Shown here piece by piece: positions 25,249 to 40,021 of a stretch of 64,000 nucleotides of DNA. A program made the translations under genes and the position numbers. The stretch spans positions 10,449 to 74,448 of the forward strand of contig JABMPJ010000161.1 in the NCBI GenBank assembly GCA_013203785.1, written 5' to 3'. Position 1 is the stretch's first letter, and each line of letters begins with the position of its first letter. A model generated the notes under the pieces. That model did no database searches. It was not told the origin of the DNA and was given only the letters and a program-made list of their open reading frames with translations. Source of the stretch: Lentisphaerota bacterium. GTDB taxonomy: Bacteria > Verrucomicrobiota > Kiritimatiellia > UBA8416 > JABMPJ01.

Positions 25249-25845
25249 ATGGAACCGACCCCTACAGGCTTGGACCCGACGCCCGCGCGCAAAAATCCAC
25301 CAGCCACGCGCAAGCAGCGCCTGCTCCTGCACATCTGCAGTGCACTCTGCCCACCCGAGGCGATCGAATGCCTGCGCGCTGACTACGAGATCACCGGCTT
25401 CTTCTCCAACTCGAACATCGCCCCGGAACCCGAGTATTGGCGACGCCTGACCGAGGCCCACCGCCTGGCTACGGAACTCGGGATACCCTTTATTATGGAC
25501 ACCTACGACCATGCCGAGTGGTTGGAAAGCGTGGCCGGACTGGAATCAGAGCCGGAAGGAGGGGCGCGCTGCGAGCGCTGCTTCGCCTTCAGCCTCTCGC
25601 ACGCCGCCGCCTATGCCGCCGCCAACGGCTTCGACAACTACACCACCACCCTCTCCATCGGCCCTGACAAGGATAGCACCACGATCTTTCGAGTGGGGCG
25701 CGAGCAGGGCCCTTTCCTTGAAGTGAACCTCAAGAAGAAGGACGGCTTCCGCCGCAGCCTCGAGTTAAGCCGCACCTATGATCTCTACCGCGAGGACTAC
25801 TGCGGCTGTGAGTTCAGCCGCTCCACTCCCGCCCCCTCGGCGTGA
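25249..25845 (+). CDS. queH: epoxyqueuosine reductase QueH (DUF208 family), variant N-terminal Cys motif
   Basis: ORF 25189..25845; preferred start ATG 25249. LLLHICSALCPPE (canonical LLLHxCCAPCS) and C-terminal YDLYREDYCGCEFS (canonical YCGC). Confidence 0.7.
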   Translation: MEPTPTGLDPTPARKNPPATRKQRLLLHICSALCPPEAIECLRADYEITGFFSNSNIAPEPEYWRRLTEAHRLATELGIPFIMDTYDHAEWLESVAGLESEPEGGARCERCFAFSLSHAAAYAAANGFDNYTTTLSIGPDKDSTTIFRVGREQGPFLEVNLKKKDGFRRSLELSRTYDLYREDYCGCEFSRSTPAPSA

Positions 25846-25917
25846 GAGCCTCTCGCTCCTGCATCCCGAAGACCGCCCTGCACATGGGATCGGGCGCATC
25901 TGCGATTTGGTGCATAG

Positions 25918-25988
25918 GTCCCAATCGTAATCGTAATCCTGCTCGTAATCATAATCGGATTACGATTACGAGCAGGATTACGATTGGG
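25918..25988. repeat. ~71-bp imperfect palindromic element built from CGTAATC heptads (copy A)
   Basis: TCCCAATCGTAATCGTAATCCTGCTCGTAATCATAATC|GGATTACGATTACGAGCAGGATTACGATTGGGA. A near-identical element is at 38486..38556. The ORF-track translations NRNRNPARN.RITITSRITI on both strands are artefacts of this repeat. Confidence 0.8.
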
Positions 25989-26081
25989 ACAGATACAACA
26001 GAACGTCAGATAGGCCCTGAAAGCAACAGCAGCCCTATTTTTGGAGTCGCTGTGATCGAGTCCCTGTGTCAGGCTAGAGAG

Positions 26082-26408
26082 ATGAAGAAGACCTTTGAGT
26101 TGATTCACCCGAAAATCAAGTACCCCAGACTTGTCGAGGCGGTCCGGCGAGATGTTAAGAAATATGTAAAGCGCGAGTGCCGCAAGACGCTCCCGGAGGG
26201 ATTTGATTTCTGGGCTTTCGACTGCAAATTTGGTCCGACCGAAGCGGATGCCAAGGTGATCCATGTGGCCGAGTTCAGCCAGTATATCACTACCGCCGAG
26301 AAGGAAGAGCTGACCTCTTTCTATATTGAGATCCTGGCGAAGCCAGCGAAACGCCAGAAGAAACAGGGAGCCGTAGCCAAGGGCGGGCAGGCAATGCCGG
26401 AGGCCTAG
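26082..26408 (+). CDS. small basic hypothetical protein (108 aa)
   Basis: ORF 25842..26408; upstream portion is repeat-derived. Real start likely ATG 26082 (MKKTFELIHPKIKYPRLVEAVRRDVKKYVKRECRKTL...). Lys/Arg-rich, slightly lower GC. Confidence 0.45.
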   Translation: MKKTFELIHPKIKYPRLVEAVRRDVKKYVKRECRKTLPEGFDFWAFDCKFGPTEADAKVIHVAEFSQYITTAEKEELTSFYIEILAKPAKRQKKQGAVAKGGQAMPEA

Positions 26409-26509
26409 CACCTAAATAAGCCAACTGATACCCTATTTAGACTTGTGTTCGTTGGGGCGCTGCGATAGAGTCTCTTTTTCATTCAAAACACCCTACGGGA
26501 GAGGTTACC

Positions 26510-38357: not shown

Positions 38358-38485
38358 GGGTCGCCGCATCCCGATTCCGTGACTCCATCTCCCTCTACAG
38401 CCCACAGCCTGGTCGTCTGCCATGGCCGAAGCTTAGGGAGTATCTGTGAGTTGTCATGGACCAGTGGATTCGAAGACATCACCGT

Positions 38486-38556
38486 TCTTCGTAATCGTAA
38501 TCTTGCTCGTAATCGTAATCCGAGTACGATTGCGGGCAGGATTACGATTACGGAAA
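38486..38556. repeat. ~71-bp palindromic CGTAATC-heptad element (copy B)
   Basis: TTCTTCGTAATCGTAATCTTGCTCGTAATCGTAATCCG|AGTACGATTGCGGGCAGGATTACGATTACGGAAAA. Arm mismatches are T/C transitions, which would still pair as G-U in RNA. About 85% identical to copy A. Confidence 0.8.
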
Positions 38557-38806
38557 ATACCAGTACAACAAACCGGAGAAGTGCCGTGCAGACTCCTCAT
38601 CCCCCAATTCCGCTTGAGCTTCATCTCGCTTCTGTGATAGGCCTGTCCGGTCGGTGAAGATCGACACTGTCTCCGAGCCATCCCCCCCTAAGGCTAGAGT
38701 GCTACGGGTTGATAGGCCGGTATAGGGCGTGGGCGGAAACGACCACGCCTCCCGGGGGGTGGCATACAATAGGTGTGCCATACCACCCATTGGAAAGGAG
38801 ACGGCA

Positions 38807-40021
38807 ATGATGACACCACTTGAGGCGTGGCAGAGCATTGGTCTGCACACGCAGCCGCTACCTGCAACCCATCGATCCCTCGCGTCGGCCACGGGATATG
38901 TCCTGTCCGAAGCGGTGGTCGCAGATCGCGACGTACCACCCGTCAACCGCGCCGCCATGGACGGCTACGCCGTGCGGGCCGAGGACCTCGCGTCCTGCCC
39001 TGCCACACTCACCCTTATAGGCGAAGTGGCCGCCGGATCCGATGCCACTCCCCTCGTCAGTCAGGGCGAATGCGTGGCGATCTACACCGGTGCCAATGTC
39101 CCCCCAGGTGCCGATAGCGTGATCATGGTTGAAGAGACGGAAGCGGCGGGCACAACGATCCGCTTTCTCAAACCGCCCCGCTCCGGGCAGCATATCTTCC
39201 GCCAGGGCGAGAATGCCCAGCGGGGCGAGATCCTATTGGAAGCCGGGGTCGTTCTGGGCGCAGCAGAAGTCGGCGTATGCGCCGCGGTGGGTGTGGATCG
39301 CCCCTCTGTTTTCGGACGGCCGCGCGTGGCGATTCTCTCTACCGGGGCCGAACTGTTGGATGCCAGCGAGGAGGTCGAAGCCCACCAGCTGCGTAACTCG
39401 AACGGGCCCATGCTCGTAGCAGGCCTAACGGCTGCCGGATTCGAGGTGACCCACTGCCGCGCCGTGGATGACGATGAGGAGCGGATCGTTCAAGGCATAC
39501 GCGATCTGCTCTCGACATGCGACTGCCTCATTCTGACCGGAGGTGTTTCCGTCGGCAAGTATGACCTGGTCCCACAGGCCATTCAACAGGCCGGGGGCAC
39601 GGTACATTTCCACGGCGTCGCGATCAAACCGGGAAAGCCCCAACTCTTTGCGACCACCGACGCGGGCAAGATCCTTTATGGTCTGCCCGGCAACCCGCTC
39701 AGCTCGATGGTCGGTTTACAGGAGTTTATTCTGCCCGCCCTGCGCCGCATGGCCGGCACCCCGGTCGAGCGCTGCCGGCCAATGCTGAAGGTCCACCTCG
39801 GAGCAGACATCGGCGGCAAGACCGGCCGACTGCGCCACAACATGGTCTCACTGGTGTCGGACGAGACGTGGGGCATGGTGGCTATGCCGGTCACCCACAG
39901 CGGCTCGGCCGATCTGATTGCCGGGGCCCGCGCCGATGGCACCGTCATCATACCGGCAGACGTCGCCAGTATACCGGCTGGCAAGATGGTGCATTTTTGT
40001 CCGTGGAGAACGATCGGATGA
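38807..40021 (+). CDS. moeA: molybdopterin molybdenumtransferase MoeA
   Basis: ORF from 38729; preferred ATG 38807 after AAAGGAG RBS. MoeA N-terminal, MoCF-binding GGVSVGKYD and C-terminal domains. Confidence 0.9.
   Translation: MMTPLEAWQSIGLHTQPLPATHRSLASATGYVLSEAVVADRDVPPVNRAAMDGYAVRAEDLASCPATLTLIGEVAAGSDATPLVSQGECVAIYTGANVPPGADSVIMVEETEAAGTTIRFLKPPRSGQHIFRQGENAQRGEILLEAGVVLGAAEVGVCAAVGVDRPSVFGRPRVAILSTGAELLDASEEVEAHQLRNSNGPMLVAGLTAAGFEVTHCRAVDDDEERIVQGIRDLLSTCDCLILTGGVSVGKYDLVPQAIQQAGGTVHFHGVAIKPGKPQLFATTDAGKILYGLPGNPLSSMVGLQEFILPALRRMAGTPVERCRPMLKVHLGADIGGKTGRLRHNMVSLVSDETWGMVAMPVTHSGSADLIAGARADGTVIIPADVASIPAGKMVHFCPWRTIG

Follow-up and report, generated by a model that had tools for sequence, protein, structure and literature searches.

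We analysed a 64,000-nucleotide stretch of a Lentisphaerota bacterium genome, here called the window (assembly GCA_013203785.1, contig JABMPJ010000161.1, positions 10,449 to 74,448). It contains two long palindromic elements, A and B, spaced 12.5 kb apart, which are probably remnants of a mobile element. Element A lies, as an initial annotation made from the sequence had placed it, between queH (PF02677; 25189–25845) and a small downstream gene, which encodes a DUF6172 protein (26052–26408) and is followed by mrp/apbC. Element B, the second copy reported in that annotation, is positioned 128 nt past a hypothetical gene and ~100 nt before a molybdenum-cofactor (Moco)/tungsten-cofactor riboswitch (RF01055 at 38659–38816; 60.9 bits, E = 3.6e-12); at its full extent it ends ~70 nt before the riboswitch. 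The riboswitch is directly upstream of moeA (~38804–40021), which is followed by moaA (to 40992). Because B ends so close to it, the promoter of the riboswitch would have to lie in the short gap or inside B. In Rfam gathering mode the riboswitch is the sole match in the whole window, and no rRNA was found.

The core of A is a 71-nt string at 25919–25989; the near-palindrome described earlier is present, but starts one base further to the right than was given. A repeat finder places its inverted-repeat arms at 25929–25956 and 25958–25985, 28 nt long, 96% complementary and separated by a 1-nt spacer, and a weaker 48-nt inverted repeat (75%) extends to 25903–26005. The arms of B (38485–38520 and 38522–38557) are 36 nt each and 83% complementary. 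The repeat unit is not a CGTAATC heptad, as first proposed: the arms have a period of 6, with runs of AATCGT, AATCCT, GCTCGT and AATCAT, and 14-nt boxes recurring every 18 nt. Allowing up to two mismatches, the 13-mer CGTAATCGTAATC occurs 11 times in the window, nine times inside A or B, compared with 0.62 expected (none of 100 shuffles gave 11). A relaxed scan for five in-phase TCNT units returned A, B and one chance site only (shuffle mean 0.05). Judged by end-to-end folding and by remnants of terminal inverted repeats (TIRs) in the flanks, both elements reach ~30 nt past each side of the core, to 126 bp for A and 139 bp for B, rather than the ~71 bp given at first. Their parts are listed below; L numbers denote DNA stretches retrieved from other genomes or metagenomes, the cassettes are the gene-bearing relatives described further on, and MITE stands for miniature inverted-repeat transposable element.

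25892–26017, no strand: element A, full extent, a probable gene-less foldback of MITE type; pairs end to end in the predicted RNA and aligns with the TIR and upstream arm of the TIR-bounded L169 and L010.
25892–25912, + strand: putative decayed left TIR of A, GGGCGCATCTGCGATTTGGTG; 13 of 15 positions match the TIR2 variant GCGCATCTCAGATTT of the L115 and L075 cassettes (empirical p = 0.003).
25923–25957, + strand: left array of A, hexamer units AATCGT AATCGT AATCCT GCTCGT AATCAT AATCG.
25958–25990, + strand: right array of A, GATTAC GATTAC GAGCAG GATTAC GATTGGGAC; an exact mirror of the left array except for one A/C mismatch.
25996–26017, - strand: putative decayed right TIR of A, reverse complement GGGCCTATCTGACGTTCTGTTG; contains GTTCTGTTG, 9 of 9 to the TIR1 core (empirical p = 0.035).
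38453–38591, no strand: element B, full extent, a probable second, more diverged foldback copy; defined by folding and by alignment with A and L169/L010.
38453–38465, + strand: possible left-TIR remnant of B, GTCATGGACCAGT; its similarity to TIR1 is not significant alone (p = 0.5), and it is placed by pairing with 38584–38590 in the fold.
38489–38520, + strand: left array of B, TCGTAATCGTAATCTTGCTCGTAATCGTAATC; 100% identical over 32 nt to arms of L001 and L099.
38522–38553, + strand: right array of B, GAGTACGATTGCGGGCAGGATTACGATTACGG; a mirror of the left array with four mismatches.
38566–38589, - strand: putative decayed right TIR of B, reverse complement GCACGGCACTTCT..GGTTTGTTG; 11 of 13 to the TIR1 core GCATGGCAGTTCT (empirical p = 0.035), aligned with the L169 TIR.

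The first 8 nt of the left TIR of A (GGGCGCAT) are identical to TIR1, and the TIR-like flanks of both elements sit at the expected distance from the arms. As RNA, A is predicted to pair from end to end (-66.3 kcal/mol, z = -10.65), its right TIR pairing with 25892–25912, and B to form a 30-bp central stem with an outer GUCAUGG/CCGUGC pairing (-53.8 kcal/mol, z = -6.3). These predictions bear out the hairpin or cruciform potential recognized at the outset. Four open reading frames (ORFs) run through the elements (25842..26408, counted from its first start codon; 25797..26411 on the minus strand; 38379..38657; and 38454..38681). No reading frame in A or B stays open on both sides for longer than 42 codons, and neither element has similarity to PF05635 or to a transposase. 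The ORFs containing NRNRN or ITIT peptides are, as had been supposed, artefactual: their frames happen to lack stops.

Scanning one genome per species with the hexamer pattern CGTAATCGTAATCNNNNNCGTAATC returned at least 115 stretches. Among the matches listed, most come from bins of the Planctomycetota-Verrucomicrobiota-Chlamydiota (PVC) group (Verrucomicrobiota, Lentisphaerota, Kiritimatiellia, Planctomycetota), and some from Acidobacteriota, Hydrogenedentota and others. Positions 25925–25956 of A are 96.9% identical over 32 nt to the upstream cassette arms of L010, L048, L108 and L110, and the left array of B matches L010, L110, L037 and L056 equally well (96.9% over 32 nt). The arm that precedes the genes of L110, L048, L108, L037 and L010, TCGTAATCGTAATCTTGCTCGTAATCATAATC, is identical to the window arms at 31 of 32 positions, and the unit order AATCGT-AATCGT-AATC[C/T]T-GCTCGT-AATC[A/G]T is common to window and cassette arms. 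Recurrence of the arm sequence in many genomes and metagenomes refutes the alternative of a local duplication confined to the window.

More telling than the number of matches is their internal anatomy. At positions not fixed by the search pattern, the T, C and T of TCNT are 94–98% conserved and N and both A positions vary, so the unit is best written NNTCNT. Single-substitution variants fall at the N of TCNT in 30 of 47 cases; most of these changes are transversions, and the variation is therefore not CpG decay. When both orientations co-occur, the order is (AATCGT)n...(ACGATT)n in 35 cases and the reverse in three, a fixed polarity that argues for common descent and not for independent microsatellites. 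The arms enclose a lineage-specific interior of 0 to ~500 nt. Arms of the same element are more alike than arms of different elements (39% versus 18% at informative positions), but lineage-specific unit types confound this likeness, and we draw no conclusion on RNA structure from it. For the most part the arrays lie between genes and outside long ORFs, and the check on placement relative to gene ends gave 15 tandem, 3 convergent and 4 divergent gaps across genomes, with no terminator-like preference.

Other interpretations of the arrays were tried and rejected. A branched-chain leader peptide of (Ile-Val)n type has no start codon and a stop directly upstream, and the genes downstream are unrelated. 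An (Asp-Tyr)n coding frame is interrupted by stops in most variants. DnaA-trio, Hfq (ARN)n, TRAP-like triplet and CsrA motifs were also considered; the arrays number dozens per genome and, in the predicted fold, pair with each other.

An all-versus-all ORF comparison of the 115 loci identified PF05635 as the sole gene family directly adjoining the arrays. Slightly larger ORF clusters consist of ordinary regulator genes that do not adjoin them, and at these loci no transposase adjoins the hexamer hairpins. A protein of ~120–140 aa is encoded exactly between the arms in L082, L096 and L115, and beside an arm in L110; it belongs to PF05635 (23S_rRNA_IVP; E = 3e-17 and 5e-22) and to TIGR02436 ('four helix bundle protein'). 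Using tblastn, a complete or fragmentary PF05635 gene was found next to or between the arms at 12 of the 115 loci. Three such proteins were also looked up by identity, with no DNA pattern (L117/118, L119–L122 and L123–L132), and all three genes have arrays on both sides. The complete cassette consists of a 21-bp TIR (GGGCGCATGGCAGTTCTGTTG), 5–9 NNTCNT hexamers, a ~45-nt leader, a ~135-aa PF05635/TIGR02436 gene, the complementary array, (ACGATT)n, directly after the stop codon, and the inverted TIR. In L117 (2923–3493), for example, the order is GGGCGCATGGCAGTTCTGTTGGGG, array, ~45-nt leader, ORF, array and CCCCCAACAGAACTGCCATGCACCC; the sequence TIR, arm, PF05635 ORF, arm, TIR is found in L117, L141, L165, L179, L191 and L239. 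As RNA, the L117 cassette is predicted to fold with its left TIR and 5' arm paired to the 3' arm and right TIR around the ORF (z = -5.4). The gene has the same orientation as its upstream neighbour in 12 cases and the opposite one in 8, with no clear co-orientation. This PF05635 subfamily comprises at least 8000 clusters at E < 1e-10, mostly on short contigs.

Some cassettes have further repeats around or inside them. In L119 (3429–4090; also L120–L122 and L227), a second PF05635 gene of another subfamily directly follows the first cassette and is flanked by inverted heptamer arrays: GGTTCAA upstream, and CTTGAAC/CCTTGAAC many times downstream, in a copy number that varies among samples. A different palindromic mini-element (CTAGCATCCCATAGGA...TCCTATGGGATGCTAG) occupies the cassette leader of L056 (236–345), with TTACGCTGTCA duplicated on either side; a MITE from a different family has here inserted into the cassette. 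In L123 (2838–2870), a complete cassette has part of a hexamer array, TTAATCGTAATCCTAATCTTAATCGG, immediately beyond its left TIR, and the right TIR is missing; insertion of the cassette into an older hexamer hairpin, or recombination with one, may account for this arrangement. Beside a complete cassette in L030 (7830–8000), at least nine 18-nt units GAGGAGGATTACGATTAC run up to the contig end, and one frame would read (EEDYDY)n.

The ends of the cassette led to its probable partner. A metagenome scan with the 17-nt TIR core returned at least 120 stretches. In 8 of 22 independent TIR pairs the 9-nt flanks are identical at eight or more positions, and none of 2000 mismatched controls reached seven, indicating a 9-bp target-site duplication. 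TIR-bounded elements form a size series: 79, 108, 184, 191 and 212 bp with no gene, 271–410 bp with an internally deleted gene, 553–594 bp with a complete gene, and ~2.0 kb for an insertion sequence (IS). The loop of L075, for instance, is the L115 gene deleted between two CCGATT repeats. A second end variant, GCGCATCTCAGATTTTTC, bounds the cassettes of the Akkermansia-labelled bin, with a matching flank (L115 CATGAACC). The IS, L211 6–2005, has the same TIR at both ends, including the exact 17-mer core, and encodes an ISKra4 transposase (NF033572, 205.7 bits at a cut-off of 205) and a DUF6788 protein; elements of this type are ~2 kb long, with a 456-aa transposase and no hexamer arrays. Homologues of the transposase with 80–84% identity (L255–L257) are bounded by GGGCGCATGGCAGTTCTGATG ends, one mismatch from the 17-mer core, and L256 shows a 9-bp duplication, TCTTTTGCA. 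NCBI labels one ISKra4 transposase, with 80% identity to the L211 enzyme, 'Lentisphaerae bacterium', the name also borne by this bin, though its link to the source genome is unproven. ISKra4-type elements are the likely source of the transposase. A resemblance of the TIR to IS6/IS26 ends (GGCACTGTTGCAAA) was set aside after identification of the ISKra4 element, whose ends are identical. In these IS, a divergent Cys-rich DUF6788 gene of ~140–157 aa lies beside the transposase gene (L211 1459–1932, L255 74–505, L256 155–589).

Which part of a cassette A and B represent is indicated by a signature in the arms. Both arms of A and both arms of B carry CTGCTCG/CGAGCAG; on the right array of A it appears as CGAGCAG, the mirror of the upstream-arm form CTGCTCG. 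Among complete cassettes, the signature is present in 11 of 25 upstream arms and the mirror hexamer CGAGCA in 3 of 20 downstream arms; read from the sequence, at least some of the downstream matches look like coding ends rather than arm units. Because both arms carry the upstream-arm signature, we infer that A and B are left-end foldbacks and not simple internal deletions. The right flanks of A and B share the derived bases TACAACAGAAC and TACAACAAAC, compared with CCCAACAGAAC in canonical ends, which suggests that one foldback variant spread to both sites.

Based on these observations, we suggest that A and B are probably decayed, gene-less copies, of MITE type, of a non-autonomous DNA transposon whose complete form is the PF05635 cassette and which is moved by ISKra4 transposase. 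The family itself is established by the arm homology, the cassette anatomy, the duplications, the deletion series and the IS with the same ends. Given their IS-type ends and duplications, the complete cassettes are mobile insertion cassettes (MICs) and the short forms MITEs, in the terms of ISfinder (PMC3129680). By the standard inference, a cassette free of transposase would be moved in trans by an ISKra4-family DDE transposase, and internal deletions would yield progressively shorter derivatives. A and B would be extreme derivatives, left-end foldbacks with two upstream-type arms facing each other and no cargo. They would have arrived by transposition of the foldback variant and would now be immobile, with ends ~65% conserved and no duplication left. 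Most likely, both are old immobile insertions with no dedicated host role. A transcript crossing either element, from queH or from the gene upstream of B, would carry a hairpin of at least 30 bp, by analogy with the rRNA intervening sequences discussed below a predicted RNase III substrate or transcript barrier. The initial annotation had proposed a dispersed REP/MITE-like family, and its MITE half holds: the arm recurs in many genomes, with TIRs, 9-bp duplications and an IS with the same ends. The REP half, with its REP-associated tyrosine transposase (RAYT), does not, the partner being a DDE transposase of ISKra4 type. The other proposal, a recognition site for an unknown protein, is only partly apt, the outer ends being transposase ends.

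A number of observations weigh against this interpretation. Neither a PF05635 gene nor an ISKra4 transposase is encoded within the 64-kb window, and among the TIR-bearing metagenome stretches just 1 of 120 has the transposase. The terminal repeats of A and B are weakly significant, that at the left end of B not at all. No target-site duplication is visible at either element, and the 9-nt flanks differ (A: CATGGGATC / TGAAAGCAA; B as read from the sequence); such duplications either do not exist or have decayed, unless the element boundaries are misplaced. No orthologous empty site was found: the closest matches to Mrp, from Pontiellaceae/Kiritimatiellia, have 75% identity, and these nearest relatives are not syntenic. 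Most hexamer hairpins from the genome scan have no outer terminal repeat. The hairpin module may therefore spread or persist independently of TIR ends, and A and B could have come from a hairpin of that sort. Raw counts of the hexamer pattern are also not evidence. In a control on viral contigs the real pattern matched 20 stretches, two of three permuted hexamers matched at least 120 each, and the third matched none. Tandem hexamers are common in themselves; some matches of the genome scan are obviously simple repeats or coding repeats, and its spread across phyla is probably in part due to unrelated simple repeats. In the IMG/VR viral contigs, (GCTAAT)n and (CTGAAT)n are very frequent, especially in giant-virus bins, and (CGTATA)n is absent.

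Hexamer hairpins of other types were seen in the scan. In a Thiodictyon-labelled bin and others (L006, L033, L076, L097), (TGTCGT)n(AATCGT)n arms surround a conserved ~60-nt loop (…GCGCCCCGGATTCTCTCGCACGCCAAATTGCATCGC…). They are a separate multi-copy family with the same hexamer logic, in which no PF05635 gene and no recognisable TIR was seen. In the Akkermansia-labelled CAMBEJ01 (L054 380–640 and 7680–7790; L075 1470–1680; L028), hexamer hairpins lie within a palindromic repeat of ~250 nt, with the conserved loop CGGGTGTTGCCCTTGAAACAGAGGGGTG and conserved outer inverted flanks CGAGCCAC[C/T]CCAATTCC, which differs from the cassette type of the same bin. In three different bins, L094 2398–2480, L077 753–835 and L061 1920–2001 share a CTGCCCCGGAAAG-type loop and a one-sided 80-nt flank, AAGGAAATTTCAACAATCACAATCTCGCAAACGATTC..., with no ORF and no inverted partner of that flank.

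The PF05635 cargo invites comparison with the intervening sequences of 23S rRNA. In Coxiella, an ORF of the PF05635 family is enclosed by a terminal stem of 28 bp, which RNase III cleaves in vitro, with tandem GACAGAT heptamers in front of the ORF (PMC4990558). RNase III excision is known for the intervening sequences of Coxiella, Leptospira and Salmonella; the origin of these elements is unclear, transposition being a hypothesis only, and they are regarded as selfish (PMC4990558). PF05635 is regarded as a homologue of Avd, the accessory protein of diversity-generating retroelements, and has no assigned function (PMC10053308). The complete relatives found here resemble the intervening sequences of Leptospira, Coxiella and Brucella and their Xanthomonas relatives in protein family, in the stem-enclosed ORF and in the short tandem repeats adjoining it. 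They differ in lying between protein-coding genes, not in 23S helix 25 or 45, and in having IS-type TIRs with 9-bp duplications; the window copies are stem only, with no ORF.

A bolder proposal can be built on this likeness, and we regard it as possible but speculative. PF05635 genes would be the standard cargo of widespread, undescribed ISKra4-mobilised cassettes. The arms would act as a double-stranded RNA excision device, with RNase III cutting the cassette or its hairpin remnant out of transcripts, and rRNA intervening sequences would be those cassettes whose insertion site was in rDNA. As for A and B, they would serve as RNase III-dependent transcript separators before DUF6172-mrp and the Moco-riboswitch operon. 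If this were true, insertions between genes, and even inside rRNA genes, would be tolerated.

It is less likely still that A and B, though derived from a transposon, have been kept for the host as a site of RNase III processing, a factor-independent barrier to transcription or a stabiliser of mRNA 3' ends. The long hairpin would, on this doubtful account, uncouple queH from DUF6172-mrp, and the gene ahead of B from the Moco-riboswitch/moeA operon. The positions fit, both copies lying in co-directional gaps, 70–130 nt after a stop codon and with full-element ends ~35–70 nt before the next gene or riboswitch; co-directional gaps are, however, the commonest kind, and members of the family occur in gaps of all three kinds, tandem, convergent and divergent. 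Both stems are highly stable, and RNase III cuts those that close off PF05635 intervening sequences, as noted above for Coxiella. Yet a terminator consensus scan listed neither A nor B, and the A+U-rich stems are followed by GGGACAGAUAC (A) or GGAAAAUACC (B) with no U-tract, so these are not canonical terminators. The arm mismatches are divided. Read from the sequence, three of the four in B would be G-U pairs on the transcribed + strand (the fourth is A-G), whereas the sole mismatch of A is A-C on the + strand and G-U on the other. Two copies allow no covariation test.

We find it improbable that the hexamer arrays are themselves the functional unit, as periodic RNA or DNA sites for an oligomeric protein, most plausibly the pentameric four-helix-bundle protein encoded between them, with A and B as orphan decoy or regulatory sites and the TIRs incidental. 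The idea draws on the conservation of TCNT and the concentration of substitutions, mostly transversions, at its N position, on the company the arrays keep with the PF05635 gene and their absence from the autonomous IS, and on the many hexamer hairpins with no terminal repeats. Heptamer arrays also accompany the other PF05635 subfamily (L119) and the Coxiella element (PMC4990558). But the binding sites are putative, and TCNT conservation may reflect descent and slippage-driven homogenisation. A 6-nt period misfits the duplex helical repeat, the arrays are mutually paired in the predicted RNA, which would hide single-stranded sites, and the window has no PF05635 gene.

Very little favours a gene-specific cis-regulatory site, either a transcription-factor operator or a structured leader RNA for DUF6172-mrp and the molybdenum-cofactor operon. 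Both copies do lie upstream of metal-cofactor genes (mrp/apbC for Fe-S; the Moco riboswitch with moeA-moaA), but the same arm stands beside unrelated genes in many genomes. Neither A nor B belongs to an Rfam family: in E-value mode, 25800–26120 matched only generic miRNA-hairpin models, at 19–25 bits against thresholds of 70–90. A promoter scan found no sigma-70-like promoter overlapping A or B.

Least credible of all is a repetitive extragenic palindrome (REP) or bacterial interspersed mosaic element (BIME) spread by a RAYT (Y1, IS200/IS605-like) transposase: the elements are intergenic, palindromic and multi-copy, as REPs are, but REPs are 20–40 nt long, Y1-dependent and devoid of TIRs or duplications, whereas A and B measure 126–139 bp with a tandem-hexamer interior, their complete relatives have 21-bp TIRs and 9-bp duplications (DDE hallmarks not made by Y1 transposases), their ends match an ISKra4-family IS, and no family except PF05635 is enriched near the arrays at the 115 loci.

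As transposon remnants, the elements combine features of known classes. Like MITEs as defined in PMC3129680, they are small and non-coding (79–216 bp in relatives, 126–139 bp here), at the family level share TIRs with an autonomous IS and have 9-bp duplications of fixed length, and are intergenic, numerous and presumably moved in trans. Unlike typical MITEs, their interior consists of two inverted tandem-hexamer arrays taken from a gene cassette and not from the IS, and the window copies are one-end foldbacks with decayed TIRs and no visible duplication. The complete relatives resemble MICs (a term likewise taken from PMC3129680), such as MIC231 of the IS231/IS4 group, in having IS-type TIRs, duplications and a passenger gene but no transposase; they differ in that the passenger is always a PF05635 gene between complementary hexamer arrays and the partner is an IS of the ISKra4 family. 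Lacking the gene, A and B are not MICs themselves. The ISKra4 IS (NF033572) have the same 21-bp TIR and 9-bp duplication (L211, L255–L257) but are ~2 kb long, with a transposase, DUF6788 and no hexamer arrays, and nothing of them is present in the window. MITEs and MICs are thus a known kind, and the combination of ISKra4-type ends, a PF05635 passenger and inverted hexamer arrays appears undescribed: literature searches with the literal sequences and for hexanucleotide repeats in Verrucomicrobia, ISKra4 MITEs and PF05635 found no description of the element, nor of a MIC of ISKra4/PF05635 type.

For the window the practical result is modest, the two copies being ordinary remnants: annotation should treat A, B and the ORFs crossing them as left over from a transposon, and should call none of them a gene, a REP or a regulatory RNA. 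Metagenome assemblies, too, break at such elements. Many hexamer-pattern matches lie close to contig ends, TIR-core matches often do, and a Logan contig (SRR28106102; L116 position 1) with the same genes has its first base precisely in the middle of palindrome A (window 25961), so the near-perfect inverted repeat evidently breaks short-read assembly. For the wider family, the cassette links multi-copy PF05635/Avd-like genes and the stem-enclosed architecture of rRNA intervening sequences with an ordinary DDE transposon system. The hypothesis that intervening sequences originated by transposition thereby gains testable ends, a candidate transposase and a deletion series.

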